From assembly GCA_963789185.1 (NCBI GenBank), contig CAWBJU010000022.1:181853-213852 (forward strand): a DNA stretch of 32,000 nt, written 5' to 3'. Of this stretch, positions 10,700 through 29,940 are shown in pieces; position 1 is the first letter of the stretch; each line of letters opens with the position of its first letter. This stretch comes from an uncultured Acidobacteriota bacterium (lineage in GTDB: Bacteria > Acidobacteriota > Blastocatellia > Pyrinomonadales > Pyrinomonadaceae). Position numbers and translations under genes: made by a program. Under the pieces are notes generated by a model. It ran no database searches. It was not told the origin of the DNA and saw only the letters and a list, made by a program, of their open reading frames with translations.

Positions 10700-11044
10700 T
10701 TAGCTGCCGCGATACGTCGAGTATCCGTACGGACTGATGAGCAGCGGCACGTGATAGTGCTGCGACGCGTCGTCGACGTTGAACACAACCGTTACCTGCG
10801 GATAGAAACATGAGACGCTGAGACCCGAGAAATAAGGCTCGGTATCGAAGACGAGGCGATATGTGCCGTCGGCGATAGGTCGGTCGACCAGGAAGAACGG
10901 TTTGACGCGACCGTCGTCATCGGTCCATGCGTGGCTCAACTCGGTCCAGCTCTCGTCAGTGTTCTGCGCTTCGAGGCTGACGGCGACACCGCTCGCCGGC
11001 GCTCCGCGCGACGTATCGAGAATATGGGTTGAGATCGTGCTCAT
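10700..11044 (-). CDS. uraH: 5-hydroxyisourate hydrolase (transthyretin-like)
   Basis: Track ORF is 10700..11305, but its first 87 aa overlap uraD in another frame. The real start is ATG 11044 (MSTISTHILDTSRGAPASG), giving 114 aa that end in the family signature YSTYRGS. Confidence 0.9.
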   Translation of the reverse strand: MSTISTHILDTSRGAPASGVAVSLEAQNTDESWTELSHAWTDDDGRVKPFFLVDRPIADGTYRLVFDTEPYFSGLSVSCFYPQVTVVFNVDDASQHYHVPLLISPYGYSTYRGS

Positions 11045-11052
11045 TGTGGTGC

Positions 11053-11571
11053 TCAGTGTACCAGCTTTTTGAGCCGTATTTCCGTTATCTTTGCTTGTTC
11101 CGCTGCGGCGATGCGAAGTTCGGCGTCGGGTTCGTTGCTGAGGCGCTCGCGTAGGAGTTCGAGCATTTCGGCCGCTGATTTTCCCGTGGCGCAAACGATG
11201 AATATGAAGCCAAATTTTTGTTCGTAGTCCTGGTTGAGTTGGGCCAGCGCGTCGAGTGTTTCCTTGGTAGCGACTTGCACTCCAGCCTGTTCCTGGCCGG
11301 ACCATTGTTTCGATTGAGACGAGACTCTGTCAGCAGCCTTTTTCTCTCCGAGCTTTTCTCCGATACGGGGGTGACTGTGAAACGCTTCGAGCCAATCGGA
11401 GGGTTCCAGCGACCACCACATCGCGTTACCTAAGCGCGTCAGTCCGTCGATGCCTGATGCGTACTGCCGGAGCTGCACCATCGCTTCAGCCCACCTCACT
11501 GATCCGCAGCATTTTAGAAACTCTTGCAGTGCTTCGTCCGGCGGCAGTGCTTCTAACGACTCGTAATTCAT
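11053..11571 (-). CDS. uraD: 2-oxo-4-hydroxy-4-carboxy-5-ureidoimidazoline (OHCU) decarboxylase
   Basis: 172 aa with the HPRIGE motif (AFHSHPRIGEKLG). It overlaps the allantoicase stop by 4 nt. Confidence 0.85.
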   Translation of the reverse strand: MNYESLEALPPDEALQEFLKCCGSVRWAEAMVQLRQYASGIDGLTRLGNAMWWSLEPSDWLEAFHSHPRIGEKLGEKKAADRVSSQSKQWSGQEQAGVQVATKETLDALAQLNQDYEQKFGFIFIVCATGKSAAEMLELLRERLSNEPDAELRIAAAEQAKITEIRLKKLVH

Positions 11572-12617: not shown

Positions 12618-13007
12618 TCAGGTCAAGATGTACTTCTTGATTTCAAGCTTTGGACCGCCGAAATTGATTAGCAGTCCGTGTTGCATGCCCGTTGCCCTAA
12701 GATAACCTAGCAATTGTGCAGTGTGACCATCAACCAAGGCGCTACAACTCTTTATTTCGCAAATCAGGATTCGCTCTAGCAAGATATCGGTTCTGAATAG
12801 GCCAAGCAGCGTACCATCCTCGTCAAATACTCGAATGCATTCTTGCTGCTGCGCACGAATACCCTGTTTTCGAAGCCGATGTGCCAGCGCATTCTCATAA
12901 ATCTTTTCGGTAAAGCCGCTGCGCAAATACTTGTGAATTTCAAGACTCGTTCGTCTAACCAAATCAGAAAGCCTGAGGATCTCGCCGTCGTGAGGAACGG
13001 TTTTCAT
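12618..13007 (-). CDS. GxxExxY protein (PD-(D/E)XK nuclease superfamily, PDDEXK_3 / TIGR04256-like)
   Basis: 129 aa with the motif GFTEKIYENAL (G-x-x-E-x-x-Y) and a nuclease-like D...E-x-K (TDILLERILICEIKS). A good SD (AGGAGAGAG) precedes ATG 13007. GC is visibly lower: 26/60 over 12618-12677, against 35/60 in alc at 12481-12540. Confidence 0.85.
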   Translation of the reverse strand: MKTVPHDGEILRLSDLVRRTSLEIHKYLRSGFTEKIYENALAHRLRKQGIRAQQQECIRVFDEDGTLLGLFRTDILLERILICEIKSCSALVDGHTAQLLGYLRATGMQHGLLINFGGPKLEIKKYILT

Positions 13008-14421: not shown

Positions 14422-15170
14422 TCAAGTAAAGACCGGCGGTGGTGGCGGCGTGCTGGGCGGTTGCGGACCCTGGCGCAACCCAAAGATCTGCTCGTAAGCG
14501 ACAGCCATGGCCGCATAGCTGATTGGCAAGACGAAGTACACCCCGATAATGCACATCAGTAGGCCCGCGAGGCTCAACAGAAAATTCAGGAAACCATTCC
14601 CAGCAGTCCCCAGAAGTTTGCGAACGCGCCTCTGAAACTCATCTTTATCGCGTCCAGTCCCTGCAGCCCGCGATCGACGATTAGCGGGTACACAAACATA
14701 AACCCGATCGAGAGGAACATGATCAACCCAATGATCGCTATCCAGAACACTGCATACACGAGAAAGACAAGCAGCATCGCTCCGCCATTTGGTTCCCCGT
14801 TTGACTGCGAGAGCATCGCGAAAAGAAAAAATACGTAGAACAGAACGTAAGCTCCGACCACGAGGCAAATAATCGGCACTACGTGGATCAGCGTTGCGAC
14901 GATGCTCTGGCCCAGGTATTCGAACCCCTTGAATAGTGTCCCGAATTCAATGGGCTCGCCCCGGCGCATCTTGAAGAACGTCAAAAACAGGCCACACATC
15001 ATCGGTCCCATCAATATTCCGAACGGAACAGCCGAGGCAATCATCCATCCGACGATGACCATGCCGAGGATCAACCAGTACTGGTTCTTGATCAGGTTCC
15101 ATCCTCCCTTAAGGCATTCGACAGGACTAACTGCGTTTCGATTGAACTCGACTGGAGGGACAGTTGACAT
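14422..15170 (-). pseudogene. The same membrane-protein gene read as one unit, needing a 1-nt frame correction near 14586-14600
   Basis: Downstream of the stop, the other frame (tail of track ORF 14422..14868) encodes a further TM helix and tail, FLNFLLSLAGLLMCIIGVYFVLPISYAAMAVAYEQIFGLRQGPQPP.... It stops 5 nt before the allB ATG. One extra T in GTTTCC would join the two frames (ATG GTT TTC CTG AAT TTT). Confidence 0.5.
14586..15170 (-). CDS. Polytopic membrane protein of unknown function (5' reading frame)
   Basis: 194-aa ORF with several TM helices (WLILGMVIVGWMIASAVPFGILMGPMMCGLFLTFF...). It ends abruptly at FANFWGLLGMVS*. Confidence 0.7.
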   Translation of the reverse strand: MSTVPPVEFNRNAVSPVECLKGGWNLIKNQYWLILGMVIVGWMIASAVPFGILMGPMMCGLFLTFFKMRRGEPIEFGTLFKGFEYLGQSIVATLIHVVPIICLVVGAYVLFYVFFLFAMLSQSNGEPNGGAMLLVFLVYAVFWIAIIGLIMFLSIGFMFVYPLIVDRGLQGLDAIKMSFRGAFANFWGLLGMVS

Positions 15171-15214: not shown

Positions 15215-16792
15215 TTACGGGATCGGCCGCACGGGGGCGGCGATGGCTCTTGGTCCACGCAGGGGACCCATGGCTCCGCGGTCCACCTGAAAGAACATTG
15301 GCCCGCGCCGCGGCGATAGAACGCTCGAGTATGTTCCACCGTATGGCGAGCGAAAGTACGTCGAAAAGAAAGGCACGAATGTGTACTGGCCTGCTGCCTG
15401 AGGTTGATACCAAAAGCCGGTGCTTTTGAAGCGACGCCGGCGCAATTGGCCCAGGCGCGTGGCCATGACCGAACCGGTGAAGTGCTGACCTTCACCACGA
15501 TGCTGGCTCCAAACGTCGAAGTTGTCGGTGATCTTCCGGTCGCACTCAAACGTGTTTCCGCCGGTGATAATTCGACAGGAGCCGATCGATCGGTCCTGAA
15601 TCATGACCTTGCCTCTGCGAATTATGATCTCATCGGTACCTGGCTTGGCGTTGACGCGGTAGTTTCCTTCTTCTGCGACGACGGCGGAACTCGATGGTCC
15701 ACTGATCTTGATCTCGGGTAGCTCTTTTCGATCGAACCTCGCGACGTCGAGTATCGCGGAACCTCGCAACACTTTGAACGCAACCGACTCATTCGACAGT
15801 TGTTCGAGCAAGACCTCCGACTCGCCGTCAATTCGCAGGTAAAGATCCGGAAACATCGTCAACTCGGCGAAGCTGTGGCGACTGGTGCGCACTTTGTCGC
15901 CGGGTACGAGTATCGTCTTGTCCATCAACTCCTGCCACGGTTTATCTGTCGATGTGAATTCAACTCCCATTTCGACAAAATTCACTGCGCCCGGCCTAGC
16001 AGACACCACGTGAGGATTGCTGCCTCTCTGGTCGGAAGCGGGAAAGTCGACTATCGGTTCACGCCCTTCTTTCTTCTTGGCCCATGGAGAGTCTTTCTTC
16101 AGTGCATGATTTGCTTCGATCAGTTTGTCAGAACGTTCGCGGCCCCATTTATCAAACGCGTCTTCTACTTTAACGTCGGACTCACTGACAATGACGGAAC
16201 CTCCCGCGGCGACAGCGGAGCGTTTTTCCTTGACGCGACGCCCGTCGATCAATGCCTCGCCTCTGCGGACAATGAGTTCCGTTCGGCCGTCGGCGGTGTT
16301 GATGCGAAAGACTCCGGGTTGAGTGATGAATACTTCCGCGTTCGGGGTGATAACGCGGATAAGCTCGAAGCCCTGTTTGAGTGTTTCGAAGAAGTCTGAC
16401 GTGTCTTCCCAATCGTTTTTCAGCAGCTCGAAACTCAGCGTGCCTTTGTTCAGGACAAACTTCAAACGATCGTAACGATCGTCGACGAAGTGGCATTCAG
16501 TGTTTGCGTCGGCACGCAGGAGATTTCCTGGTTGCAGCAAGAGCTCGACGCGTGAGTTAGCGCCGGTGCGCAAGGTGTCCGCCTGCTTCAATTCGAGATC
16601 CGCTTCAATCGGAAACTTCGCGTTTTCACGCACGTAGACCACGTCGCCTTCCACCGCATTCGCGCGCAGACCATTGAGTACCGCCGGAATGTTTGGGATC
16701 GGCTCTTCCGGATCCTGGTCCTGCGCCGGAATGTGCACCACAAGAGCTGCTAAGGTCAGCATTAGCAACACTGTGCGACGATAGTTTGACAT
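15215..16792 (-). CDS. Secreted protein with two FecR-like domains and an Arg/Pro-rich tail
   Basis: 525 aa with the signal peptide MSNYRRTVLLMLTLAALVVHIPA|Q. There are two FecR-like beta segments (LKQADTLRTGANSRVELLLQPGNLLRADANTE and VPGDKVRTSRHSFAELTMFPDLYLRIDGESEV). The family call is by pattern only. Confidence 0.55.
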   Translation of the reverse strand: MSNYRRTVLLMLTLAALVVHIPAQDQDPEEPIPNIPAVLNGLRANAVEGDVVYVRENAKFPIEADLELKQADTLRTGANSRVELLLQPGNLLRADANTECHFVDDRYDRLKFVLNKGTLSFELLKNDWEDTSDFFETLKQGFELIRVITPNAEVFITQPGVFRINTADGRTELIVRRGEALIDGRRVKEKRSAVAAGGSVIVSESDVKVEDAFDKWGRERSDKLIEANHALKKDSPWAKKKEGREPIVDFPASDQRGSNPHVVSARPGAVNFVEMGVEFTSTDKPWQELMDKTILVPGDKVRTSRHSFAELTMFPDLYLRIDGESEVLLEQLSNESVAFKVLRGSAILDVARFDRKELPEIKISGPSSSAVVAEEGNYRVNAKPGTDEIIIRRGKVMIQDRSIGSCRIITGGNTFECDRKITDNFDVWSQHRGEGQHFTGSVMATRLGQLRRRRFKSTGFWYQPQAAGQYTFVPFFSTYFRSPYGGTYSSVLSPRRGPMFFQVDRGAMGPLRGPRAIAAPVRPIP

Positions 16793-16802
16793 GCTCGTTT
16801 GA

Positions 16803-17666
16803 TTACGATTTCAGCGTTGCCACAAAGTCGGCGAGTAAGTTCAACGCGACTTGCAGACGATAATTTGCAGTCGACCGAATGTCGTCAATGGGAGAGATCT
16901 CGCGTCGCAGCGTCGCCTGTGCCGATTTCACTGTTGCGGCGTCGGGCGACTGACCTTTCAACACGTTTTCTGTTTGCACGCAGCGGACGACGATCGGGGC
17001 TACGCTGCCGACAGCGATGCGCACGTCTTCGATCTGGCCGCTGTTCGTACGCGCTACAGCGGCAAAACAGACTTTCGAGATCGCCTGCGCTTTTCGCGTT
17101 CCAACTTTGCGATAGTAATGGGTCGCGCCGGTGGTGTTGCGCGGCAACCTGATTCTCGTCAGCAGTTCGTCAGGGCGAATCAGCATCTGCTTGTAGCCGG
17201 TGTGAAAACCCTGATACGGCAACCAGCGCGAGCCTTGCGTTGAGACTAACTCAACTTCGGCATCGTAGGCGAGCAACGCGGGTGGTGAATCCGCCGCGGG
17301 TGAAGCATTGACGATGTTGCCGCCGAGCGTGCCACGGTTCTGGATTGCGAGACCGCCGGTTTCCCCCGCCGCCTGACAGAGCATCGGAAACTCGGTGCGC
17401 AAAACTGGATGCGTTTGAACGTCGGTGTATGTTGATAGCGCGCCGAGTGTAACGTGATCGTCGTTTACTTCGATTCCGCGAAGTTCAGCCAGTTGCCAGA
17501 TATTGACGTAGTTGCGATGGTCCAACCTGCCGGCTTCGAGCAGGACCATCAGATCGGTGCCGCCGGCAAACGGCTTCCAAACTCCCGGTTCGTTCGCGAG
17601 CAGGGAAAGGACATCCGCGAGCGAAGGCGGTGTAGTGAGTTGGTAGCTTGGAATGTAGGCTCTCAT
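16803..17666 (-). CDS. Xanthine dehydrogenase family FAD-binding subunit (CoxM-like)
   Basis: 287 aa with the FAD-binding motif FAGGTDLMVLLEAG. ATGA overlap with the upstream Fe-S subunit gene (17663-17666). Confidence 0.85.
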   Translation of the reverse strand: MRAYIPSYQLTTPPSLADVLSLLANEPGVWKPFAGGTDLMVLLEAGRLDHRNYVNIWQLAELRGIEVNDDHVTLGALSTYTDVQTHPVLRTEFPMLCQAAGETGGLAIQNRGTLGGNIVNASPAADSPPALLAYDAEVELVSTQGSRWLPYQGFHTGYKQMLIRPDELLTRIRLPRNTTGATHYYRKVGTRKAQAISKVCFAAVARTNSGQIEDVRIAVGSVAPIVVRCVQTENVLKGQSPDAATVKSAQATLRREISPIDDIRSTANYRLQVALNLLADFVATLKS

Positions 17667-18124
17667 TCGATCGCTTTAACTACGGATTCGAAAATCTTCA
17701 TGTACCCGGTGCAGCGACACAAATTACCCGCGAGCGCGGTGCGAATGTCTGCCTCCGTCGGTTTTGGATTCCGTTCGAGCAGATCGACCGCGGCGAGGAC
17801 CATTCCGGGCGTGCAGATCCCGCATTGCGCTCCACCATGTTCGATAAATGCCTGTTGGACCACGTGAAGTTCTGCCTCTCCGGCAACACCCTCGATCGTT
17901 GTGATCTCGCTGCCATCAACCTGGGCCACCGGAACCAGACAACTATTAACAATCCGGCCGTCGATGTTCACCGTGCACGCGCCACACTCGCCCTCGCCAC
18001 AACCCTCCTTCGTCCCCGTGAGCTGCAACTGCTCGCGCAACACGTCGAGAAGCCGCGCCATTGGAAACACTTCCACGCGGTGTTGCCGGCCGTTAACCTT
18101 GAACGAGACTTCGCTCTTGTTCAT
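17663..18124 (-). CDS. Xanthine dehydrogenase family [2Fe-2S] subunit (CoxS-like)
   Basis: 153 aa with two cluster motifs, CGEGECGACTV and CGICTPG...CRCTGY. Confidence 0.9.
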   Translation of the reverse strand: MNKSEVSFKVNGRQHRVEVFPMARLLDVLREQLQLTGTKEGCGEGECGACTVNIDGRIVNSCLVPVAQVDGSEITTIEGVAGEAELHVVQQAFIEHGGAQCGICTPGMVLAAVDLLERNPKPTEADIRTALAGNLCRCTGYMKIFESVVKAIE

Positions 18125-20345
18125 GTCGTTCCATCAATAATTCGGGCATGAGCGGGACGTGAGTAAAACTCGTGCCGGTGGCGTTTTCGATCGCGTTCAG
18201 GATTGCCGGAGCCGCGCCATCCATCGGTAACTCGCCGATTCCTTTTGCCCCACCTGGTCCATAGGCGTACGGATTCTCTTCGAAGAAGACGCGAATCGGA
18301 GGAATGTCGACCGGCGTCGGAATGATGTAGTTCGTCATCTGGTTGTTGATCATGCGGCCGTCTTTCCACACCACATTTTCAAACAACGTGAACCCGATCG
18401 CCTGCGCCACGCCACCTTCGATCTGTCCGGCCGCGAGCACCGGATTGAGTACACGCCCGACTTCCTGCAACGCAACAAAATCTTCGACTCGCGCCTCGTA
18501 AGTCAGCTCGTCGTACGAAACTTCAGCAACGTAAACAGCCCATGCGTATGCACCATACGCGTCGCCCTGGTACTTATCGTCGTCCCAGTAAATGTTCGGC
18601 GGTGGTTGATAAGTGGCCGACGCTTTCAATGGACCAAACCGCGTCACGTAGTCGCGACATGCGGCGCGAAAGTTTGAAGCTGTGTAACCGTCGGCGAGTA
18701 ACCCGGCGCCGATCAACGTCTGCTTCAACGCTGTGACGGCAGACTCCACCAGTTTGCCGACAACCATCGACGTGCGCGACGCGACCGTCGGTCCACTATT
18801 TGGCACGCGTCCGGTGTCAGGCTGGACAATCTCGATCATGTCGACATCGACGCCAAGAGCTTCGGATGCGATCTGCGAAAAAATCGTGTTTGTTCCCTGC
18901 CCGATCTCGGTGCTCGCAGCGAGTATTTGGACCTGTCCGTCGATCGTTGCCTCAGCGGAGACGACCGACTGCAAATAAACTTCGCCGGATCCGGTGAACC
19001 CTGCGCCGTGCATGAACGTTGCGAAACCGATGCCGCGCTTTTTGCTGAATGGCCCGTGACCGTTACGCGAGTTTTCACGCGTGAACCGTTCGCGTTTCGC
19101 CTCGTAGTCGCTGAGCTGAAGCGCGCGATCCAACAACCCATTCATGTCGACGCGTTCGTGAATTACCTGACTCGTCGCGGTTGTTTCACCTTCGCGAATG
19201 AAGTTGCGACGGCGAAACTCTTCCGGCGTTAAACCAACTGCGCGAGCGACCTGATCCATGTGACGCTCCTGCGCGAAGATGCTTTGCGGCGCGCCGAAAC
19301 CTCGGAACGCACCGTGCGGCGGGACGTTCGTCGCAACTGCACGGCTGTGAATCCTGACATTCGGGCAGAAGTATGGACCGGCAGCGTGAATCGTTCCGCG
19401 CGACAGCACCACGGGCGACAGCGTGCAGTAAGCGCCGCCGTCGATCGTGAAGTCGATCTCCATCGCGAGCAGCTTGCCGTCTTTCGACACGGCGGTCTTG
19501 TGACGTGTGCGCGAAGGATGTCGTTTGGTCGTGGCTACCATGTCTTCGGCGCGGTCGTAAATGATCTTCACTGGTTTGCCAGACTTCCACGACAGCAACG
19601 CGGCGTGTCCGGCGATCAGCGACGGATACTCTTCCTTCCCACCAAAACCGCCGCCTGTTTCCGTTTGAATGATGCGAATTTTCTCTTCCGGCAGGTCGAA
19701 TAACTTCACGAGCGCTTTGTGCACGTAGTAAGGACACTGCATCGATCCCCAAACAGTTACGCCTTCTGCCGGGCTCGCAACTGCAATCGCGCCATTGTTT
19801 TCGATGTAGAGTTGTTCCTGAGCGCCCGTTTCGTACTCGCCTTCGACGATGAAGTCCGCGGTGGCCCACGCTTCGTCGACGTTCCCTTTGTCAACGAGAA
19901 ACTTTTTGAAGACGTTGTCCTCGCCCCAGACGATCTCTTTCTTCGCGAGCGACTCCGCGAGCGTAAACACGGCGGGCTGATCTTCGATCTCGATCACGAT
20001 GTTCCGCCGCGCTTCTTCGACGAGGTATTTGTCGCGGTGTGCGATCAGCAGCACGGGTTCTTCGGCGTGGTTGACGAAGCCATCGGCGAGGTATGGCTGA
20101 TCGTTCAGAATTAGCGCGACGTAGTTCGCGCCGGGAACGTCTTTAGCAGTGACGACGGTGAACTCGTCCCAGGGAATGTTGCCGCCGAAGTTGATGTTTG
20201 TAATTCGCCCGCGTGGCTTTGGACTGCGAATCGTCGCCCCGTGCAGCATGTCCGGAAACGACAGATCGTCGATATACAACGCCTGCCCAGTAACCTTCTT
20301 GCGTCCCTCTTTTCGAGGAACAGACTTGCCGATGGGGTTATCCAT
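18093..20345 (-). CDS. Xanthine dehydrogenase molybdopterin-binding subunit
   Basis: 750 aa with XDH-type motifs TETGGGFGGKEEY, FRGFGAPQ and GAKGIGELP. Its 3' end overlaps the Fe-S subunit gene by 32 nt. Confidence 0.9.
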   Translation of the reverse strand: MDNPIGKSVPRKEGRKKVTGQALYIDDLSFPDMLHGATIRSPKPRGRITNINFGGNIPWDEFTVVTAKDVPGANYVALILNDQPYLADGFVNHAEEPVLLIAHRDKYLVEEARRNIVIEIEDQPAVFTLAESLAKKEIVWGEDNVFKKFLVDKGNVDEAWATADFIVEGEYETGAQEQLYIENNGAIAVASPAEGVTVWGSMQCPYYVHKALVKLFDLPEEKIRIIQTETGGGFGGKEEYPSLIAGHAALLSWKSGKPVKIIYDRAEDMVATTKRHPSRTRHKTAVSKDGKLLAMEIDFTIDGGAYCTLSPVVLSRGTIHAAGPYFCPNVRIHSRAVATNVPPHGAFRGFGAPQSIFAQERHMDQVARAVGLTPEEFRRRNFIREGETTATSQVIHERVDMNGLLDRALQLSDYEAKRERFTRENSRNGHGPFSKKRGIGFATFMHGAGFTGSGEVYLQSVVSAEATIDGQVQILAASTEIGQGTNTIFSQIASEALGVDVDMIEIVQPDTGRVPNSGPTVASRTSMVVGKLVESAVTALKQTLIGAGLLADGYTASNFRAACRDYVTRFGPLKASATYQPPPNIYWDDDKYQGDAYGAYAWAVYVAEVSYDELTYEARVEDFVALQEVGRVLNPVLAAGQIEGGVAQAIGFTLFENVVWKDGRMINNQMTNYIIPTPVDIPPIRVFFEENPYAYGPGGAKGIGELPMDGAAPAILNAIENATGTSFTHVPLMPELLMERHEQERSLVQG

Positions 20346-20375
20346 GCCTTTTGTGTTTTTTTGTGCCTCTTGTGG
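20346..20375. repeat. Solo copy of the CTYTTGTGC repeat array, filling a whole intergenic spacer
   Basis: GCCTTTTGTG TTTTTTTGTGC CTCTTGTGG lies between the xdh Mo-subunit ATG (20343-20345) and the WD40-caspase stop (20376-20378). It has the same orientation as the 13029-13061 array. Confidence 0.7.
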
Positions 20376-23300
20376 CTAGGGCTTTGCGATTACGAGTGGA
20401 TTTGCTTCCAACTCGCGGCGATAGAATACACGCGGGCGCTGCACACTTCGCTGCTGTGGATCGGCGACGTCCGCTTCGCCTTCAGTGAACGCGATCTGGA
20501 TACCAAGCCCACGGCCTTGCGCCATCTTTTCTTCCTGCATGCGCGGCACACGATCAGTCGCGAAGTTGAGCCACTCGCGCGCGATCAGCACACCGTCCTT
20601 CGGTTCCGCGTCGGCGATCGGCGTTTTCAGTCCTTCTTCAACGAGGGCGTACGTCAGGTACCCGTGGCCCAACTGCGCCGCTTCGAGTGCAGCCTGAAAA
20701 CTCTGCGCGGCCGTAAGGATATACATTCCCTTTTCGTACGCGAGTTGCGCGAGCCCTTTTGAATTCATTGGACCACGACGCTTTTCCTCAGCTTCGAGCG
20801 CTTGTCCTGAATTGCACGCGTCGATGATCAGCAGAAGATGACCCGCATCCAAACCCTCAACGGCCGCTTCCAGTTCGACGTCTGAAATGCTATGCGAAAG
20901 CATCGTGTTCAAACCTGCTTCCGTCAATTTCGTTCGGTCGCCGGTGTAGCCGAGATCGTGTGGAATCAGATAGAAGCGTTGTGCCTGCGCAGTACCGTGT
21001 CCCGCGTAGTAAATGATCACCGTGTCTTCAGGCTCGACGCGTTTGAGCCCATCGCCGGGACCAGCTTTAAGCGTCGGTGGTCCAGGCTGGCCGGTGAGTC
21101 GCTTGATAACTGAAAGGATGTTGTCCTTCGTGGCGTTTGCGTCGAGTAGTTCGATAACTTCGACGCGCTCAAACGATCCGATTTGCGTTTGCTTGCGACG
21201 CATCTCGTCGCCGAAGCTGCGCGCATCCGCGACCGCGTACTTCAGATTGTACTGAGAGTTCGCGTATTCATTTACTCCGACGGCAATGATGTACGCCGTG
21301 CCTTTGCGTTTCAGCGTGTCGGCGCCGGCAAACACGAGCGGCGAATCCTTGCTCTTAACGTTGTCGCGATTGAAAGCATAGGCCACGAGCCGATTCGGTC
21401 CGGCAGTGACTGTGATCTCGTGCTCCACCGACACCGCGGCCTGTCCGTTCAGCACGTCGCCGCGCCATACCTTTACTAATGATCCATTCCGAAACAGGCG
21501 TAGATCGCGCGCGCCGCTTCCTTTCGGATTGTCCTTGTCAGCGGGCGCGTCGGTGACGTCGATCTTCACCTTGATCGTGCGCGCCGCAATACCGGATTCA
21601 GGCGCCGGGGGTCCAACAAGCGACAACTTCACCACCGGTTGTCGTCGATCTTTCTTCGAAACATCCTGCGCGACACGCGGGCGTTTTCCGTTAAAGACGT
21701 CAGCCAGCAGACCCGGATAGTAAAACTCGTTGAAGAACCACTCGATCGGTGCGACGTTGAAAGTCTCCTGGTTGTAGCGCCAGAGGATCTGGTTCCAGGA
21801 AACAGGCGTACCGTCAAACAAACCTTGCGGCGTGACGACCATCCACTCACTACCATCGTCGAGCGAGATCATCGTCAATAGGTGTTCGCCGCTCTTGCTG
21901 TCCCACAGAAACGTACTGCCATCGTCGCTTGATGACGCGAGCAATCGTCCATCAGGAGTGAAGTCGATCGACTGAATACTCGAAGTATGGCCCGTCAACG
22001 TGCGTAGGTCACGACGATTCTCGACGTCCCAAATCTTGATCGTGTTGTCAGACGCAGCGGTGGCAAGCAACTTTCCATCGCGACTGAAGACGAGCTTGGT
22101 AACGCCGCGCCCGTGTGCTTTCAGCACACCAATCTCACGGCCGCTCCCGACGTCCCAAAGTTTCACCTGGCCCGTCGTCTCAACTTTGAAGTCCTTCATC
22201 ATGTCGTCCGGGTCGAGCTGCTTTGAACCTTTCGAACCCTTTTGCGGACGTCCGCTCATCGCGGCGCTCATCATTGCGGTGAAATCGATGTTTGCCTTCG
22301 ACTCGAAGCCGCCGGTTGCGAGGATGCGTCCATCGACGCTAAAGGCGAGTGACTTCTCGCCCATCGTTCCGGACGAAACCATTCCGAGGGAGTTATTCAT
22401 CATAGCCGTGAGGTCGGCCATGTTTAGCATCGCGGGCATTTTGCCGGCTTTGATACTGCTCGGATCGATGGGTTTCATCAAGCCAGCCATCGGCGACGAG
22501 GTCAGATCGCGCACCTTGTTACCTGTCTGCGCGTCCCACAGCGAGATTTGGCCCATGTTTCCGATCGTGCCGATGGTCCGGCTGTCGCGACTGAATTCTG
22601 CTTCACTCGGATTGTCGGCCGAGATGGACCGTAGTTCTCGGCCTGTTTTTACGTCCCAAATTTTTATCTCGCCGGACAGTCCCCCGATCGTGGGTTGTTG
22701 TTTTGTATAGTCCGGAAAATAGATGACGACAAGTTTCGTCGAGTCAGGACTGAAGCGAACGCGTTGGACCATGTTATTTGCGGGCGGCGTCAGCGCGTGT
22801 ACCTGGTTCCCACTCGAAGTCTCCACGACCGACACCATACCGGTGTTTAAATTCATCAACGCCAACCAGCGCCCATCCGGACTCGTAGTGCCAAAGCCTT
22901 TTTCAAGCGGCTTTGCCGTGAGCCGCAGGCCACGTCCCGTGCGCAAGTCCCAACGCGTGCGGTCACCTGAATACAGATGCATTCCATCAGCGCTGAACGA
23001 AACATTGCCGGCCATGTTGGTCCGACCGCTCAGCTTGTTGAGTTGTTTACCGGTTTCGGTTTCCCAAACGATCGTGTCGGTATCGAAGCCGCCGGTGGCA
23101 ATGCGCTTTCCGTCTTCGCTGAAACCGACATAAGCATCGCCGTATGTACTCATCCCGGTGGTTGGTGCTTTCAAACTCGACAGCTCGCGTAGCGAAGTCA
23201 CATCCCAAATGCGAATGTTGTAGTTGTCAGACAAAGCAAGCAGCCGGCCGTCGTTGCTAAATTTGGCGACGCTGTAGTCTTTCGTCGTGCGTGTTAGTTC

Positions 23301-24173
23301 CTGGTCCTTTTTCGCGGTGAGGTCCCAAAGTTTGAAACGGCGCTCATCATTGACACCTGCGGCCAGCAGGCGCCTATCGGCCGTGAAGGCTAGTTGTAAG
23401 GTGTTGATTCGATCGTCAGATAGCTTGAAGCGTCGACTTTCACGGCCGCTCGTGACATCGATCAACTTCACGTGCGGTTCGGGATCGTCGCCGAGCAAGG
23501 CTAGCTGGTTGCCGTCAGGCGAAAGGGCCACCCCGCCGTCCGTGCCGTTGAATCCGACCACAGTGGGAGTCGAGTTGCTGTGCAGTGTGCGCAGTTCGCG
23601 ACCGGTTGTGATATCCCAAACACGCGCTGCGTCGCTGACTGTGACAATCTGATTATTAGAAGCGAAACCTATGAAGTAGACACCGAACGCGGCAGTGACG
23701 ACACCTTGTGGACCAGCCAGAGTTTGTACTTCGCGTCCGGTCAGTACCTCCCAAATCTTCACCGAGTTGTCAGCAGTGGCAGTCGCGATCAAACGATTGT
23801 CACGACTGAACGCTACATAGGGAGCGATGCCCGGTGCGTTCTGTCCGCTACTGGAAATGTCGCGCAGCTTGCGACCGGTGGCAGTCTCCCACAGCTTGAT
23901 CGTGTTGCTGCGCAAGGTTGCTGTAGCGAGCAGTCGTCCGTCAGGACTGAACACAAGACGCGTCGCGCCGATGATGCTGTTGTAGCCGGTTTGCAGCACG
24001 AGCTCGGGTTTTGCTTCTCTCGGTTGCTGCCCAGCTTGTGACGTGGATGTTGACGTCGCGCTTTGAATACCAAGACCACGCTGATCGACGGGCGTCGGGC
24101 TCGGCGCGGGATTCTGGGCCTGCACCACGAATGCACTCGACACGATTGCGATTAGTAGAACGATGTTTCTCAT
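20376..24173 (-). CDS. Exported WD40 (about 14 blades) plus C-terminal caspase/peptidase C14 domain protein
   Basis: 1265 aa with the signal peptide MRNIVLLIAIVSSAFVVQA|Q. Fourteen WD-like blade motifs are visible (IKLWE, VKIWE, FKLWD, IRIWD, IKIWD...). The caspase dyad motifs are VIIYYAGHG (His1059, nt 20997-20999) and LLLIIDACNSG (Cys1120, nt 20814-20816). Confidence 0.85.
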   Translation of the reverse strand: MRNIVLLIAIVSSAFVVQAQNPAPSPTPVDQRGLGIQSATSTSTSQAGQQPREAKPELVLQTGYNSIIGATRLVFSPDGRLLATATLRSNTIKLWETATGRKLRDISSSGQNAPGIAPYVAFSRDNRLIATATADNSVKIWEVLTGREVQTLAGPQGVVTAAFGVYFIGFASNNQIVTVSDAARVWDITTGRELRTLHSNSTPTVVGFNGTDGGVALSPDGNQLALLGDDPEPHVKLIDVTSGRESRRFKLSDDRINTLQLAFTADRRLLAAGVNDERRFKLWDLTAKKDQELTRTTKDYSVAKFSNDGRLLALSDNYNIRIWDVTSLRELSSLKAPTTGMSTYGDAYVGFSEDGKRIATGGFDTDTIVWETETGKQLNKLSGRTNMAGNVSFSADGMHLYSGDRTRWDLRTGRGLRLTAKPLEKGFGTTSPDGRWLALMNLNTGMVSVVETSSGNQVHALTPPANNMVQRVRFSPDSTKLVVIYFPDYTKQQPTIGGLSGEIKIWDVKTGRELRSISADNPSEAEFSRDSRTIGTIGNMGQISLWDAQTGNKVRDLTSSPMAGLMKPIDPSSIKAGKMPAMLNMADLTAMMNNSLGMVSSGTMGEKSLAFSVDGRILATGGFESKANIDFTAMMSAAMSGRPQKGSKGSKQLDPDDMMKDFKVETTGQVKLWDVGSGREIGVLKAHGRGVTKLVFSRDGKLLATAASDNTIKIWDVENRRDLRTLTGHTSSIQSIDFTPDGRLLASSSDDGSTFLWDSKSGEHLLTMISLDDGSEWMVVTPQGLFDGTPVSWNQILWRYNQETFNVAPIEWFFNEFYYPGLLADVFNGKRPRVAQDVSKKDRRQPVVKLSLVGPPAPESGIAARTIKVKIDVTDAPADKDNPKGSGARDLRLFRNGSLVKVWRGDVLNGQAAVSVEHEITVTAGPNRLVAYAFNRDNVKSKDSPLVFAGADTLKRKGTAYIIAVGVNEYANSQYNLKYAVADARSFGDEMRRKQTQIGSFERVEVIELLDANATKDNILSVIKRLTGQPGPPTLKAGPGDGLKRVEPEDTVIIYYAGHGTAQAQRFYLIPHDLGYTGDRTKLTEAGLNTMLSHSISDVELEAAVEGLDAGHLLLIIDACNSGQALEAEEKRRGPMNSKGLAQLAYEKGMYILTAAQSFQAALEAAQLGHGYLTYALVEEGLKTPIADAEPKDGVLIAREWLNFATDRVPRMQEEKMAQGRGLGIQIAFTEGEADVADPQQRSVQRPRVFYRRELEANPLVIAKP

Positions 24174-25477
24174 AAACTGTCTGCCAACGCCGAATGCTCG
24201 AGCACTAACAACCCGACAGCAATCAGCGCCAAAACGTACATTACTGGATGAATATCTCTCCTGCGGCCGACAACCAGATAAAGGCCAACGTGCGCAATGA
24301 AGCCCCAGAGTATTCCCTGGGTGATCGAAAAGGTCAGGGGGATGAGGATTATAGTCAAAAACGCCGGAAGACCTTCCTCCATTTTGACGAAGTTTATGGC
24401 AGCAACGCTTTTAAACATTGCGGCGCCGACCAGCACCAGGACGGGCGCAGTTGCGTAAGCAGGCACCATGCCCGCGAGCGGCGCGAGAAAGAAGCACGGG
24501 AGAAAACAAAGCGCCGTGAAAACGGCGGTTAGTCCGGTGCGGCCGCCGACGTTAATCCCCGCGATGCTTTCGATGTACGCGGTGCCTGACGACGTGCCCG
24601 CCAGTCCGGCGCCGAAGGTCGCGACCGAATCGACAATCAATCCCTGGCGTAGATTCTTCGGATTTCCCTCTTCGTCGAGTAGACCGCTGGCGTGTGAGAC
24701 ACCCATAAATGTGGAGATCGAGTCGAAGAGGTCGGTGAAGAGAATGGCGACGATCGCTGGTAGCAACGAAAGTTTCAGCGCACCGAGGATGTCGAGTTTG
24801 AGAAAGACGGTCTGGAAATCGGGATAGCTGAAGAGTTGAGGCGGCGCCGTGATGTGACCGCGCAGTAGAAAGAGTACAGTGACGACGAAGATTCCAGCGA
24901 GATACGCGAGCGAGCTGCCGCGAATGATCAGGAATACGATGACCGCCATTCCGATGACGGCGATCAGTGTTTTTTCGTCGAGCTTACCGAGTTTGACGAG
25001 GGTGACCGGGTCGCCTGTGATCAGTCCCGCGTTCTTGAGACCGATGAACGTCAGAAAAATTCCGATACCGGCTGCGGTGCCGATGCGGAGTTCTGACGGG
25101 ATCGCCTTTGCGATCGTTTCGCGGATCGGGGTTATTGAGATCAAAAGGAAAAGAACGCCTGCCCAGAAAACGATACCGAGTGCTGTTTGCCACCAGACGC
25201 CCTGCGTCAGGATGATCGTGAAGGTGAAGAATGCGTTGATGCCCATGCCGGGTGCGACGCCGAAGGGGAGTTTGGCGTAGAGGCCCATCAGCAGTGTCAT
25301 CGTGAAACAGAGGAGGACGGTGGCGGTTAGTGCGCCGCTGAATGCGATGCCTGTTCCCGGGGTTGAGAGGATCGACGGGTTTACGACCACGATGTAGGCC
25401 ATCGTGAAGAAGGTGGTGACGCCGGCGATTGCTTCTGTGCGGATGTTTACGGGAGTGGGGGCTGCCGGGGTCGTCAT
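24170..25477 (-). CDS. NCS2/AzgA-type purine permease (adenine/guanine/hypoxanthine class)
   Basis: 435 aa and polytopic, with the N-terminal signature IRTEAIAGVTTFFTMAYIVVVNPSIL. The stop overlaps the next gene's ATG (ATGA at 24170-24173). Confidence 0.9.
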   Translation of the reverse strand: MTTPAAPTPVNIRTEAIAGVTTFFTMAYIVVVNPSILSTPGTGIAFSGALTATVLLCFTMTLLMGLYAKLPFGVAPGMGINAFFTFTIILTQGVWWQTALGIVFWAGVLFLLISITPIRETIAKAIPSELRIGTAAGIGIFLTFIGLKNAGLITGDPVTLVKLGKLDEKTLIAVIGMAVIVFLIIRGSSLAYLAGIFVVTVLFLLRGHITAPPQLFSYPDFQTVFLKLDILGALKLSLLPAIVAILFTDLFDSISTFMGVSHASGLLDEEGNPKNLRQGLIVDSVATFGAGLAGTSSGTAYIESIAGINVGGRTGLTAVFTALCFLPCFFLAPLAGMVPAYATAPVLVLVGAAMFKSVAAINFVKMEEGLPAFLTIILIPLTFSITQGILWGFIAHVGLYLVVGRRRDIHPVMYVLALIAVGLLVLEHSALADSL

Positions 25478-25599: not shown

Positions 25600-25609
25600 C
25601 AACGTCAGT

Positions 25610-25652
25610 AAAACAACAACCCGGAGCCACTGGCGACTCCGGGCCGTTGTTT
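25610..25652 (-). terminator. Rho-independent terminator of the small secreted-protein gene
   Basis: The minus strand reads CCCGGAG UCGCCAGUGG CUCCGGG followed by UUGUUGUUUU. The stem arms are 25620-25626 and 25637-25643. Confidence 0.6.
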
Positions 25653-25716: not shown

Positions 25717-26157
25717 CTAGTGAGCAACGATCGCGACGACGGTACTACTGTCGGGACGCCTCAGTGCTTTCTGCGTTGCACGCTCAGCGCGCGTTTTAGT
25801 TGCGGCGAGACTCATCGTATCGCCAGCCATTTGCGCTTGCGCGAAGAAGTACTGCTCGCCATACCGGCGAAACACAAGCTTCGTGTCCCTGGCGAGTGCG
25901 CTGTTAACACCAAAAGTCTGAACCATCGCGCTGACCCGACCGTTTTCACTCCGTATCTGCAACGTCTTTCGATCTGAAGTCGGATTCAAAATTCTGACGG
26001 TGTAGTCACCTGCCGGCAGACTCTTGTCTCCCACGGTAAACGTAAACGGAACGTGCGCGCGCATCGTCGGCGAAACGCTCGTTTGCGCCTGGCCGTCGAT
26101 GGCAAAAACCCCGCAGATAATCATGATTGCAATGGACAAATAAAGATTCCTTTTCAT
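25717..26157 (-). CDS. Small secreted protein of unknown function
   Basis: Track ORF is 25717..26190. I prefer ATG 26157, preceded by GGAGG, giving the signal peptide MKRNLYLSIAIMIICGVFAIDGQA|Q. The beta-rich mature part contains VPFTFTVGDKSLPAGDYTVRI. Confidence 0.65.
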   Translation of the reverse strand: MKRNLYLSIAIMIICGVFAIDGQAQTSVSPTMRAHVPFTFTVGDKSLPAGDYTVRILNPTSDRKTLQIRSENGRVSAMVQTFGVNSALARDTKLVFRRYGEQYFFAQAQMAGDTMSLAATKTRAERATQKALRRPDSSTVVAIVAH

Positions 26158-26940: not shown

Positions 26941-29940
26941 ATGACCCCGGAACGCTGGCAACAAGTTAAGGAGATCTTTGATTCGGCAATCAAATACCTG
27001 CCGGAACACCGCCCCGCGTTTATCTCGCAAGCCTGTGGCGGCGATGACGAACTGCGTTCTGAAGTCGAGTCGCTGATCACCTCTCACGAAAAGGAAGGCA
27101 GCTTCATCGACGAGCCCGCCTATTACGCCGCTGCCGAACTGCTCGCCAACGAAAGATCAGAACTCCCAACCGGCGACACGATCGGCAATTACGAAGTGCT
27201 TTCGTTCATCAGCCGCGGCGGCATGGGCGAAGTCTATCTGGCCCAGGACAAAAGGCTGAGCCGCAAGGTCGCGCTGAAGCTACTGCCCAGCGCGTTCACG
27301 AAAGACAACGATCGCCTCCGACGATTCGAACAGGAAGCGCGCGCCGCGTCCGCGCTCAACCATCCCAACATCATCACGATCTACGAGATCTTCCAGGCCA
27401 ACTCGACCCACGTCATCGCGACCGAGTTTGTCGAAGGTGAAACTCTGCGTCACCGCCTCGGCCGCTCATCGCTAAGCCTGAACGAAGCGCTCACGATCGC
27501 TATCCAGATCGCCGACGCACTCGCCGCCGCCCACAAAGCCGGCATCATTCATCGCGACATCAAGCCGGAAAACGTGATGTTGCGTCCCGACGGCTACGTA
27601 AAAATTCTCGACTTCGGACTCGCGAAATTAAGCGAGGAGACAACGGGAGTCATCGCCGCCGAAGCACCGACGATGCAAGTACGCACCGGTTCGGGATTCG
27701 TACTCGGCACGGCAGGGTATATGTCGCCCGAACAAGCGCGTGCACTCGTCGTCGATAATCGTTCCGACATTTTCAGTCTGGGCGCGGTGATGTACGAGAT
27801 GCTCGCACGTCGCAAGCCTTTCGAAGGCGAGACGCCGAGCGACACACTCGCGGCGATCCTGAAAACCGAGCCGACGCCTCTTCAGCACATCGTGCCGCAA
27901 CTTCCCGCGGAACTGATTCGCATCATCAACAAGTCGCTGCGCAAAGATCGTGAAGAGCGATATCAAGTCGTCAAAGATCTTTGGCTCGATCTAAAAGCAC
28001 TCAAGCAGGAACTCGAATTCCAGGCGAAACTGGATCGTTCGGTCCCGTCTGAGAACGGCGATGGTCTCACCGGCGTCATGGATCGCGCACACGCGACCAC
28101 AACCGAAGCAGCACTCAATCCTACGGAAACTCGCAGCGCCATCAACACGATCACCCAATCGATTAGCATCGAGTTAAAGCGTCACAAGATTGGCGTTGCC
28201 GTTGTGCTCGCAATTGTCCTGGCAGTGATCGGCGTCGGCGCTTTCGGAATTTACAACATCGCCAATCGCAAACCCGAAGTCGGCGCGTTTCAAAACATTC
28301 ATCTCGCACGACTCACAAATTCCGGCGACGTGATCGACGTGACGATCTCTCCCGACGGCCAGTTCATCGTTTACGTACGCAGCGACAGAAACAATCAAAG
28401 TCTGTGGATCAGGCAAGTTAGTACAGCCAACGATAAGGAAATCGTTCCGCCAAGTCCCGTTGGGTTTTTCGGCATAACTTTTTCTCCGGATGGCAACGAT
28501 CTTTACTACGCGGTAAAGGCGAACCTTGATGCCGGCACGCTCTATCGCATCCCGACACTCGGCGGCTTGCCTGTAAAAGTGCTCGAGAAAATCGATGCTC
28601 CCATCAGCTTTGCGCCGGATGGCAAGCGCTTCGTACTCGTGCGCGGAAATTATCCAAACCCTGGCGAAAGCGCACTCGTGATCGCAAATGTCGACGGCAG
28701 CAACGAACGCACACTCGCCGTTCGCCGACGTCCCGATCGCTTTTCACCTATCTTTTTTACCGGTCCTTCGTGGTCGCCAGATGGCAAGCTGATCGCCGCC
28801 ACAGTAGCGACGTCTCCCCGAATGAACAACGTCGTTTTGTTTTCTGTCGAAGACGGCAAGGAACAAGTGTTGACGCGGGACCAATGGTCGTTTGCGAGCC
28901 GCGTTCAATGGCTGCCCGACATGAGTGGCTTACTCGTTGTTGCCGGTGATGGAGTTAACAACTCGCAACACTGGGTACTCAGTTATCCAGCTGGTGAAAA
29001 ACGCCGAGTCACAAACGACCTGAGCGCGTATCGGGTAATAAGCTTGACCACCGGTGGTCAGAAACTTGCCACGATTCAGACCAATGGATTGATAAATGTG
29101 TGGGTCGCGCCGCAAGGCGACGCGGCGGAAGCGGTGAGGCTGCCAACAGGCAATGTAGGGTTCTATGCATCAGCGGGAAACAATCTGAGCTGGACCATCG
29201 ACAATCGCGTCCTTTACATGTCGAATGAGGGTGGCGTTCCGGATATCTGGATTGCCGATCCGGGTGGAGGCAACCGCAAGCAATTGACCACCCAGGGCGG
29301 CGGCAGCCCAGTCGCCACAGCCGACGGCAAGTACATAGTTTTTGTTTCGGCACGCGATGGCCAGGTGGCTATTTGGCGAATGAATATAAACGGCAGCAAT
29401 CCCGTTCGCCTGACTAGTGGTTCGATTGATGTGTTTCCTTCGCTAACGCCCGATGGCAAGTCGGTGGTCTACATCGCCAACGGTGGCGCGAAGCCGACGA
29501 TGTGGAAGATCTCGATCGACGGCGGTACGCCGGAGCGACTTTCAGATCACATAGCGAGTTCTGCTGTTGTTTCACCGGACGGAAAAATGTTGGCGTACAC
29601 TTATCCTGAATCCCCGGATCCATTTGCGCCGCCCAATCGTGTCGCAGTTGTGAACTTTCCCGACATGACGCCGGTCGCCACCTATACTTTTGGTCCGAGC
29701 AGCACGGTGCCGACGCTGATCCAGTGGAGCCCCGACGGAAAATCGATTCTTTACTCCGTCAACCGAAACAGCGTTTCGAACGTGTGGAGTCAACCAGTTG
29801 CCGGTGGTGAGCCGAAACAAACGACGTCTTTCAAGGAAAGTTTGATGACAGGTTTTGCGTGGTCCAAGGACGGCAAAATGTTTGCAGCAACACGCGGAAC
29901 GTTGATGCGTGATGCGGTACTGATCAGTGATATGAAATAG
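26941..29940 (+). CDS. Ser/Thr protein kinase with one TM helix and an extracytoplasmic TolB-like (PD40) beta-propeller region
   Basis: 999 aa with Hanks kinase motifs HRDIKPENVML, DFGLAK and GTAGYMSPEQ. The TM helix is IGVAVVLAIVLAVIGVGAFGIY. Repeated SPDG-type propeller motifs follow (ISPDGQFIVY, FSPDGNDLYY, FAPDGKRFV, WSPDGKLIA, TADGKYIVFVS, LTPDGKSVVY, VSPDGKMLAY, WSPDGKSILY). Confidence 0.9.
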   Translation: MTPERWQQVKEIFDSAIKYLPEHRPAFISQACGGDDELRSEVESLITSHEKEGSFIDEPAYYAAAELLANERSELPTGDTIGNYEVLSFISRGGMGEVYLAQDKRLSRKVALKLLPSAFTKDNDRLRRFEQEARAASALNHPNIITIYEIFQANSTHVIATEFVEGETLRHRLGRSSLSLNEALTIAIQIADALAAAHKAGIIHRDIKPENVMLRPDGYVKILDFGLAKLSEETTGVIAAEAPTMQVRTGSGFVLGTAGYMSPEQARALVVDNRSDIFSLGAVMYEMLARRKPFEGETPSDTLAAILKTEPTPLQHIVPQLPAELIRIINKSLRKDREERYQVVKDLWLDLKALKQELEFQAKLDRSVPSENGDGLTGVMDRAHATTTEAALNPTETRSAINTITQSISIELKRHKIGVAVVLAIVLAVIGVGAFGIYNIANRKPEVGAFQNIHLARLTNSGDVIDVTISPDGQFIVYVRSDRNNQSLWIRQVSTANDKEIVPPSPVGFFGITFSPDGNDLYYAVKANLDAGTLYRIPTLGGLPVKVLEKIDAPISFAPDGKRFVLVRGNYPNPGESALVIANVDGSNERTLAVRRRPDRFSPIFFTGPSWSPDGKLIAATVATSPRMNNVVLFSVEDGKEQVLTRDQWSFASRVQWLPDMSGLLVVAGDGVNNSQHWVLSYPAGEKRRVTNDLSAYRVISLTTGGQKLATIQTNGLINVWVAPQGDAAEAVRLPTGNVGFYASAGNNLSWTIDNRVLYMSNEGGVPDIWIADPGGGNRKQLTTQGGGSPVATADGKYIVFVSARDGQVAIWRMNINGSNPVRLTSGSIDVFPSLTPDGKSVVYIANGGAKPTMWKISIDGGTPERLSDHIASSAVVSPDGKMLAYTYPESPDPFAPPNRVAVVNFPDMTPVATYTFGPSSTVPTLIQWSPDGKSILYSVNRNSVSNVWSQPVAGGEPKQTTSFKESLMTGFAWSKDGKMFAATRGTLMRDAVLISDMK

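Follow-up and report, generated by a model that had tools for sequence, protein, structure and literature searches.

The window analysed here, a stretch of 32,000 nucleotides (nt) from contig CAWBJU010000022.1 of an uncultured Acidobacteriota bacterium, carries a gene for a protein of 1265 amino acids (aa) in which WD40 repeats and an immunoglobulin (Ig)-like sandwich precede a C-terminal caspase-fold domain, and which lies between a purine permease gene and the genes of a xanthine dehydrogenase (XDH). Our analysis suggests that the product is an extracytoplasmic cysteine endopeptidase of clan CD that belongs to a large Acidobacteriota family, and that its gene is a long-resident accessory member of the purine operon contributing no catabolic step; we give this reading a probability of roughly 0.6. 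In the open reading frame (ORF) list and translation, the gene spans 20376..24173 including the stop codon and starts with ATG. Coordinates are positions in the window, on the minus strand unless marked (+).

A caspase-fold domain with a conserved His/Cys dyad

Residues 956-1265 (20379..21308) form a caspase-fold domain of the peptidase C14 type, a predicted protease, and this assignment is supported by a Pfam match, a structural model and a structural search. The match to PF00656 (Peptidase_C14) has an E-value of 2.1e-8 and scores 34.6 bits, against a gathering score of 21.4, and the same match is precomputed on nearly all homologues. An AlphaFold2 (AF2) model of the domain, built on a diverse alignment, reached a predicted local distance difference test (pLDDT) score of 82.2 and a predicted template modelling score of 0.86. 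Foldseek returned 171 matches for this model at E<=1e-3, including metacaspase, MALT1, GSU0716, AtMC9, procaspase-7 and legumain structures with a probability of 1.0.

The predicted catalytic histidine, His1059 (codon 20997..20999), lies in a YAGHG motif present in 140 of 150 family representatives, and the predicted nucleophile, Cys1120 (codon 20814..20816), in a DACNSG motif present in 137 of them. Cys1120 directly follows strand 157-164 of the AF2 model. In a weak profile match (E 0.28), the two residues align with the DHG and EACESG motifs of legumain, which we take to hold the catalytic His and Cys of that enzyme. The preliminary description of this gene had proposed a C-terminal C14 fold with a dyad at these residues, and both the fold and the exact numbering are borne out. 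Cys1120 is also the sole cysteine in the 1265 residues, and a single cysteine is likewise found in 59 of 117 full-length orthologues.

Comparisons with solved structures at the sequence level gave little. A single-sequence search of PDB sequences with the caspase domain found no match. A profile that retained the WD40 columns was swamped by WD40 matches, and the caspase-only profile used instead gave only marginal matches to solved structures (E 0.2-1.6), interspersed with antibody chains having a PEDxAVYY-like motif in common.

Among non-caspase C14 enzymes, all those characterised cleave after Arg or Lys owing to an acidic pocket (PMC5756287). The window protein has an invariant Asp in VADA and another in DACNSG, which by eye resemble the pocket Asp positions of metacaspases; a preference for a basic P1 residue (Arg/Lys) is our guess. 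A nearly invariant basic loop, KRRGPMN (aa 1131-1137, 20763-20783), starts 11 residues after Cys1120, and the Arg at +12 is invariant. The loop is disordered or of low confidence in the AF2 model. Its position is presumably the one at which caspases are cut between their subunits, and it may be a candidate autoprocessing site.

Predicted export and the layout of the protein

The 1265 residues are arranged as a signal peptide, a Ser/Thr/Pro linker, 14 WD40 blades, a Trp-rich linker, an Ig-like sandwich and the C-terminal caspase-fold domain. The signal peptide (aa 1-19, MRNIVLLIAIVSSAFVVQA followed by QN; 24117..24173) has a basic n-region (MR), a 15-residue hydrophobic core with a Kyte-Doolittle value of 2.8, and a VQA|QN cleavage site. 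A signal-peptide-like N-terminus was found by a crude rule in 99 of 115 orthologues and in 82 of 119 distant family members. No cysteine lies near the predicted cleavage site, and because the only cysteine of the protein is residue 1120, the signal is not that of a lipoprotein. The protein is therefore likely to be exported by the Sec pathway to the periplasm or the cell surface, as judged from these N-terminal features. We infer that losing every cysteine except the predicted nucleophile is what would be expected of a thiol protease working in an oxidising compartment, so that the lone Cys1120 supports both export and activity. Several of the extra cysteines in other orthologues lie in the signal peptide.

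The linker that follows (aa 20-55, 24009..24116) was read from the sequence as rich in Ser, Thr, Pro and Gln, and its consensus is kept among orthologues. Beyond it come 14 FSxDG motifs, at residues 75, 122, 170, 217, 263, 305, 351, 393, 430, 474, 527, 611, 696 and 738, each paired with a W[DE]; this motif count defines 14 blades, which we interpret as two 7-bladed propellers. Blades 1-7 (aa 56-386, 23016..24008) would form the putative first propeller, and blades 8-14 (aa 387-790, 21804..23015), with a conserved EWMVVTPQGLFDG strand at their end, the putative second. The WD40 and beta-propeller Pfam matches are very strong, with the best WD40 stretches at aa 605-790 in the second propeller. 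Against PDB sequences, the WD40 profile found bacterial WD40 proteins and the propellers of Apaf-1. Within blades 11-12, a stretch of Met-rich loops (aa 556-665, 22179..22508) has 14 Met in 110 aa, compared with 2.4% overall. These loops are kept in 111 of 117 orthologues and in only 10 of 135 distant family members, and their presence does not track whether XDH is adjacent. Possible ligands are Cu(I) or hydrophobic peptides.

A Trp/Phe-rich linker (aa 791-845, WNQILWRY...IEWFFNEFYYPGLL; 21639..21803) is nearly invariant among orthologues and recognisable in distant members; it had no Pfam match and was modelled with low confidence. The Ig/fibronectin type III (FN3)-like beta-sandwich that follows (aa 846-950, 21324..21638) was read from an AF2 run on the C-terminal 460 aa, which had a shallow alignment and an overall pLDDT of 55.6, with eight strands in this block at a pLDDT mostly of 74-89. 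Its Foldseek matches were FN3-like, SoxZ, macroglobulin MG and PKD domains, with E-values of 1e-4 to 1e-3. The signal peptide, Ser/Thr/Pro linker and 14 blades correspond to the earlier account of the gene, as do its 1265-aa reading frame and its junctions with the neighbouring genes, which we re-read. The beta-rich spacer of that account is indeed partly beta, of Ig/FN3 type; its length is about 165 aa and not 130, and it includes the Trp-rich linker.

Selection on these parts was estimated from pairwise ratios of nonsynonymous to synonymous substitution (dN/dS) in ten orthologues, figures that are rough, as synonymous sites are near saturation for most pairs. The caspase domain gave 0.02-0.07, the Trp-rich linker plus Ig-like part 0.04-0.10, and the propellers 0.12-0.17 in most comparisons, with a range of 0.10-0.29. 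These values indicate purifying selection on all parts of a gene that is functional and not decaying. Sequence identity is 55-70% in the propellers and 82-97% in the protease domain; the former diverge at about three times the rate of the latter.

A large family of protease-last WD40-caspase proteins

Searching 1.84 billion cluster representatives with the caspase domain retrieved 12,395 proteins at E<=1e-3, of which 1,456 (clusters at 50% identity) reached E<=1e-30. The preliminary description had viewed the reversed order and apparent export of the protein as unusual. This view does not hold, since the architecture is the norm of a huge family: 135 of the 150 best representatives are at least 1000 aa long and carry the caspase domain at the extreme C-terminus. 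The plan seen in sampled members comprises a hydrophobic N-terminus, many WD40 repeats, DWLVVTPDGLFDG, FFNEFYxPGLL, an LFRNGSLVKxW sandwich and a caspase domain ending in RPRVFYRRE. The window protein has all of these elements, namely the signal peptide, the WD40 array, the DWLVVTPDGLFDG/FFNEFY linker, the LFRNGSLV Ig-like domain and the RPRVFYRRE end. A PELVLQTGH-like motif, often located after the hydrophobic N-terminus, occurs in 70 of the 150 representatives.

Blade number varies within the family, whose members are roughly 800 to 2000 aa long: a single propeller is present in P0114, and L004 has its array divided between two genes. Full-length orthologues measure 1250-1300 aa and bear the NCBI name "caspase family protein [Pyrinomonadaceae bacterium]". 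The first homologues retrieved were short (470-860 aa), which raised the idea of a one-propeller norm or a fused gene; it was rejected, as these records reflect assembly fragments or scaffold gaps in the repeats, and full-length orthologues are abundant. Family members with source names come from Pyrinomonadaceae, Terriglobia or Acidobacteria, all within Acidobacteriota, a taxonomy that for distant members is based on few source names. Taken from these sequences, the apparently exported, protease-last WD40-caspase form is very common in Acidobacteriota. The literature that we searched describes prokaryotic caspase homologues with WD40 repeats only in general terms, and no paper on this exported family was found in it.

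The closest public records to the window are metagenome-assembled genomes of Pyrinomonadaceae, one of which, L006, is 94-98% identical across the cluster. The same gene arrangement is present in L006 and L090, at 94-98% identity, and two other proteins of 1265 aa (P0277 and P0278) are 89-90% identical over the first 802 residues searched. Because of this shared arrangement and these full-length relatives, the caspase gene is not an assembly artefact. The window protein had no exact counterpart in the assembly index.

Placement and probable co-transcription within the purine operon

On the minus strand, the ORF list and the Pfam and NCBIfam matches define an unbroken run of genes around the caspase gene. 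The first gene of the unit encodes a permease of the xanthine/uracil family (Xan_ur_permease, 24170..25477; PF00860, E=5e-41), and its TGA stop overlaps the ATG of the protease gene in an ATGA at 24170-24173. Directly downstream of the protease gene, the Mo, 2Fe-2S and FAD subunits of an XDH-family enzyme, identified by Pfam and NCBIfam, occupy 16803..20345, beginning with the Mo subunit (18093..20345). The 30 nt that separate the protease stop from the XDH start (20346..20375) have a folding energy of -7.5 kcal/mol (z=-0.2), no better than shuffles. Consensus scans found no promoter- or terminator-like site in this gap or at the junctions, and over the sequence scanned they gave fewer sites than chance. 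Upstream of the permease gene, between it and a small hypothetical gene, an intrinsic-terminator-like hairpin with a U-run (25606..25652) marks the 5' limit of the unit; its 18-bp stem has an energy of -30.9 kcal/mol (z=-4.0), and 0 of 200 shuffles were as stable. An Rfam scan of the window revealed no riboswitch or other RNA. The ATGA overlap, the unstructured gap and the upstream terminator together make co-transcription of the permease, protease and XDH genes plausible, in agreement with the tight, operon-like packing with purine genes on both sides that had been noted at the outset. The permease gene probably heads a transcription unit that continues across the protease gene into XDH.

Conservation of the association across relatives

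The XDH locus was retrieved from 80 species-representative genomes, all window proteins were mapped onto it, and the loci were ordered by the XDH tree. In one large Pyrinomonadaceae clade that includes the window, the protease gene lies directly before XDH in all 32 loci with enough upstream DNA, separated from it by 12-221 nt. Where the sequence of a locus in this clade extends far enough upstream, the protease gene mostly has the permease gene ahead of it, and a gene for an exported protein with FecR-like domains is present whenever enough downstream DNA is available. At the base of the clade, L025 and L034 have an XDH Mo-subunit gene 83-86% identical to that of the window and no other cluster genes nearby; their XDH may be a second copy or a rearranged locus.

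Outside this clade the protease gene has a patchy distribution: five small groups carry it, and it is missing from the loci of about 30 related species that possess the purine cluster. An empty site is seen in L068, L070 and L052, where the permease gene ends 46-102 nt before XDH. Since related species possess the operon without it, purine breakdown evidently does not need the protease gene. In the 76 loci where both genes occur, pairwise distances measured on XDH track those measured on the caspase domain (r=0.90, Mantel p ~0.001), and mean divergence is equal for the two, at 0.15. The correlation and the equal divergence imply long joint inheritance with the locus, most simply explained by a single ancient insertion with later losses or relocations.

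A second comparison covered 80 homologues from metagenomes, with an identity of 75-97% in the caspase domain. Of 60 assessable loci, 37 have XDH as the next gene, and the permease gene lies ahead of the protease gene in 23 of 35. The order permease-protease-Uma2 occurs without XDH in L095 and L128, and protease-XDH occurs without the permease in L130; in some homologues neither gene adjoins. Across the two comparisons, protease-XDH pairs without the permease are also seen in L044, L046, L062 and L071. Distant members adjoin genes for MerR and an acyltransferase, for efflux pumps (RND/ABC transporters), for EamA and Ogg, or for a CarboxypepD_reg protein. A Pfam census of the non-purine contexts identified no recurrent partner gene except Uma2, which accounts for 5 of 35 neighbours, all in one sub-lineage. 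The preliminary description had named a sporadic insertion with no purine link, if seen in relatives, as evidence against its reading. Relatives partly display this pattern, with some 30 lacking the gene and others carrying it in unrelated contexts, but fixation in one clade and co-divergence with XDH speak against a merely sporadic insertion. The purine-operon setting is real and lineage-specific, and it is probably incidental to the pathway.

Weighing the interpretation against its alternatives

Several observations weigh against our interpretation of an active, exported protease that resides in the operon without a pathway role. Similarity to solved C14 and C13 enzymes is marginal in sequence (E 0.3-1.6), and family placement is drawn from Pfam and the fold. 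The second cysteine of the metacaspase specificity pocket is missing from this single-cysteine protein, and export is read from sequence features only. Permease and protease genes remain neighbours in L095 and L128 without XDH beside them, and a real functional tie to purine uptake or catabolism would account equally well for clade-wide fixation, co-divergence with XDH and the conserved tight spacing.

This last point leads to the alternative that best withstands the data, a dedicated purine role, which we regard as unlikely. The propellers would sense an extracytoplasmic cue, and the protease would cut a regulator or transporter, mature or turn over an envelope component, or free purine- or nitrogen-rich material for the permease. 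Fixation between permease and XDH in 32 of 32 assessable species of the clade, the distance correlation with XDH and the ATGA coupling to the permease gene all agree with such a role. So do the permease-protease pairs that persist without XDH, the protease-XDH pairs that persist without the permease, and the exported protein with two FecR-like domains in the cluster of the fixed clade. This FecR gene, however, is absent from the other protease-carrying clades, and about 30 related species keep the cluster without the protease gene, three of them with the permease abutting XDH. In addition, a location apart from purine genes is seen for 23 of 60 close homologues and for every distant one sampled. 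The remaining genes of the cluster already span, by Pfam family, the steps from xanthine to allantoin and allantoin degradation, and the XDH 2Fe-2S subunit has no signal sequence. A more specific form of the same idea, in which an envelope protease wired to purine and nitrogen scavenging, and sharing the promoter of the permease gene, uses its propellers and Met-rich loops to recognise a cue or substrate and then controls uptake by proteolysis or releases nitrogen-rich material, seems to us quite improbable. If true, it would be the first caspase-fold enzyme shown to function within a catabolic operon, as opposed to cell death or immunity.

It is also conceivable, with a low likelihood, that the protein is a pseudo-protease, a non-catalytic envelope scaffold or binding protein whose caspase fold no longer cuts. 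The pocket cysteine (Cys92 of TbMC2, Cys29 of AtMC9) matters for metacaspase activity, its absence marks some inactive relatives, and relatives lacking it cluster with inactive forms (PMC5756287); the marginal similarity to active enzymes points the same way. Against loss of activity stand the conservation of the His motif (140) and the Cys motif (137) among 150 diverse representatives, the retention of the sole cysteine of a 1265-aa exported-looking protein exactly at the nucleophile position, and the protease domain being the most constrained part, with the lowest dN/dS.

The preliminary description had suggested either a nutrient-linked sensor or effector or a cell-fate module hitch-hiking on the operon. 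A module riding on the operon fits the data; a cell-fate role is unsupported, with no NTPase domain and only weak matches to the EACC1 and PADLOC models. Such a cell-fate or anti-phage module would resemble the caspase-WD40 proteins of conflict systems and apoptosomes, and caspase-WD40 fusions are indeed typical of prokaryotic proteins of the conflict or cell-death type (PMC3501461). The profile match to Apaf-1 propellers, the small nuclease-like genes in the neighbourhood (PDDEXK_3, Uma2), and low-scoring hits to NCBIfam caspase_w_EACC1 (48 bits) and the PADLOC "caspase" model (34 bits) could be read in this direction. We consider it very unlikely, and the least likely of the three, as the signal peptide and lone cysteine point outside the cytoplasm, unlike a cytosolic executioner; Pfam detects no NTPase domain, whether NACHT, NB-ARC or another type, and no death-like adaptor; the EACC1 score is far below the cut-off of 140 for that model (NF047832); PADLOC gave no other defence match among six neighbouring products, only generic kinase-domain matches (PD-T4-6 and others) to the Ser/Thr kinase; slow, vertical divergence in step with a housekeeping-type catabolic gene is not the pattern of fast-turnover defence islands; and base composition is uniform, with an even GC content across the region.

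Other genes in the window

Downstream of XDH, the cluster continues with the exported 525-aa protein (15215-16792), in which Pfam detects two FecR-like stretches, and with a BPSS1780/DUF975-like membrane protein (14586-15170), identified by a profile match. The FecR gene is confined to the clade in which the protease gene is fixed, and the DUF975-like membrane protein gene is more widespread. After the membrane protein gene come those for allantoinase, a small PDDEXK_3 protein of the nuclease superfamily (12618-13007), allantoicase, OHCU (2-oxo-4-hydroxy-4-carboxy-5-ureidoimidazoline) decarboxylase, HIU (5-hydroxyisourate) hydrolase and a PuuD-type urate oxidase N-terminal domain. The ORFs for HIU hydrolase (10700-11305) and OHCU decarboxylase (11053-11571) overlap by about 250 nt as listed. 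The Transthyretin domain covers only residues 91-200 of the HIU hydrolase ORF and the gene in L001 encodes 114 aa; the true start of the gene is probably internal to the listed ORF. Small nuclease-like genes vary among relatives, with PDDEXK_3 in the window and Uma2 just after the protease gene in L094, L095, L096, L098 and L128. From such variable genes between cluster genes, it appears that the neighbourhood tolerates insertions.

Upstream of the hairpin, the small hypothetical gene (25717-26156) encodes a protein with a signal-peptide-like start and no Pfam match; a counterpart of 145 aa, also without a Pfam match, has a similar position in L001. Divergent from the purine unit, the other strand carries an extracytoplasmic function (ECF) sigma factor of PF07638 (26314-26880 (+)) and a Ser/Thr kinase with a PD40 propeller (26941-29940 (+)), a pair that also occurs in L001. 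Sigma factors of the PF07638 type are thought to be controlled by phosphorylation (PMC8999054), and this one may regulate adjoining genes. At the other end of the window, an ORF at 353-4084 (+) encodes a 1243-aa outer-membrane beta-barrel with a CarboxypepD_reg N-terminal domain, of the TonB-dependent-like receptor type of Acidobacteriota, which is unrelated to the caspase gene.

Proposed mechanism and significance

In the mechanism that we favour, the protein would be located in the periplasm or at the cell surface after Sec export. The two fast-evolving, variable propellers would bind a target and so choose what is cut, and the conserved caspase-fold domain would cleave it, probably after Arg or Lys; the KRRG loop beyond Cys1120 may itself be cleaved in autoprocessing. 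In one Pyrinomonadaceae lineage, a copy of the gene would have settled long ago between the purine permease and XDH genes, with which it is most likely transcribed. The protease would at most be co-expressed with a nitrogen-scavenging operon while acting on proteins outside the cytoplasm.

Bacterial caspase homologues have mostly been discussed as cytoplasmic proteins of cell death or defence in which the protease comes first. The gene described here points to a very large, unstudied family from soil Acidobacteria whose members appear to be exported, place sensor-like propellers first and the protease last, and keep one cysteine. If these proteins are active, a dominant soil phylum would contain abundant proteases that work outside the cytoplasm; they could matter for protein turnover and nitrogen cycling, and would run counter to the assumption that a protein with a caspase fold serves cell death. 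The placement in the purine operon is itself a lineage-specific curiosity, and it offers a handle on the conditions under which one family member is expressed.

Comparison with known systems

WD40 is the commonest added domain of prokaryotic caspase homologues, found in 10.9% of 671 proteins, and N-terminal helices that are possible signal peptides have been noted among them (PMC3501461). Like the cyanobacterial orthocaspases and other prokaryotic C14-WD40 fusions (Asplund-Samuelsson et al. 2012, PMC3501461; Klemencic & Funk 2018, PMC5756287), the window protein joins a caspase-fold His/Cys dyad to WD40 repeats. It differs from them in that the protease is not at or near the N-terminus, standing instead at the C-terminus (aa 956-1265) behind 14 blades and an Ig-like domain. 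It also looks exported, lacks NACHT and the pocket cysteine, and belongs to an acidobacterial family.

The type I/II metacaspases of Candida glabrata (7qp0) and AtMC9 (8a53), together with Geobacter GSU0716 (3bij), are among the best Foldseek matches, with E-values of 1e-8 to 1e-7 at a probability of 1.0, and by eye their motif pattern is similar (G-x-N-x-Y ... D-A; H-G; D-x-C-x-S-G). Identity to them is only 12-14%, with a template modelling (TM) score of about 0.5, and the window protein has no prodomain. The MALT1 paracaspase, which dominates the top structural matches, has a caspase domain adjoining an Ig-like domain, as in the window protein. MALT1 differs as a eukaryotic cytosolic scaffold with a death domain and Ig domains otherwise arranged, and the likeness does not imply shared ancestry beyond the clan level.

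Exported cysteine peptidases of the same fold include the gingipains (C25), clostripain/PmC11 (C11) and legumain (C13), the last being a weaker Foldseek match (E ~1e-5). By profile they belong to other families, only PF00656 matching the window protein, and they have no beta-propellers. In prolyl oligopeptidase (S9) and Tricorn, propellers placed before the peptidase domain may filter or channel substrates. This parallel is a mechanistic analogy only, as these are serine peptidases with an unrelated catalytic fold, and propeller gating in the window protein is a guess. Finally, the Apaf-1 and STAND NTPase-WD40 platforms, which activate caspases, bring a tandem pair of WD40 propellers together with a caspase, as is the case here, and the WD40 profile matches Apaf-1; the window protein, in contrast, has no NTPase domain and combines propellers and protease in a single, exported-looking polypeptide.

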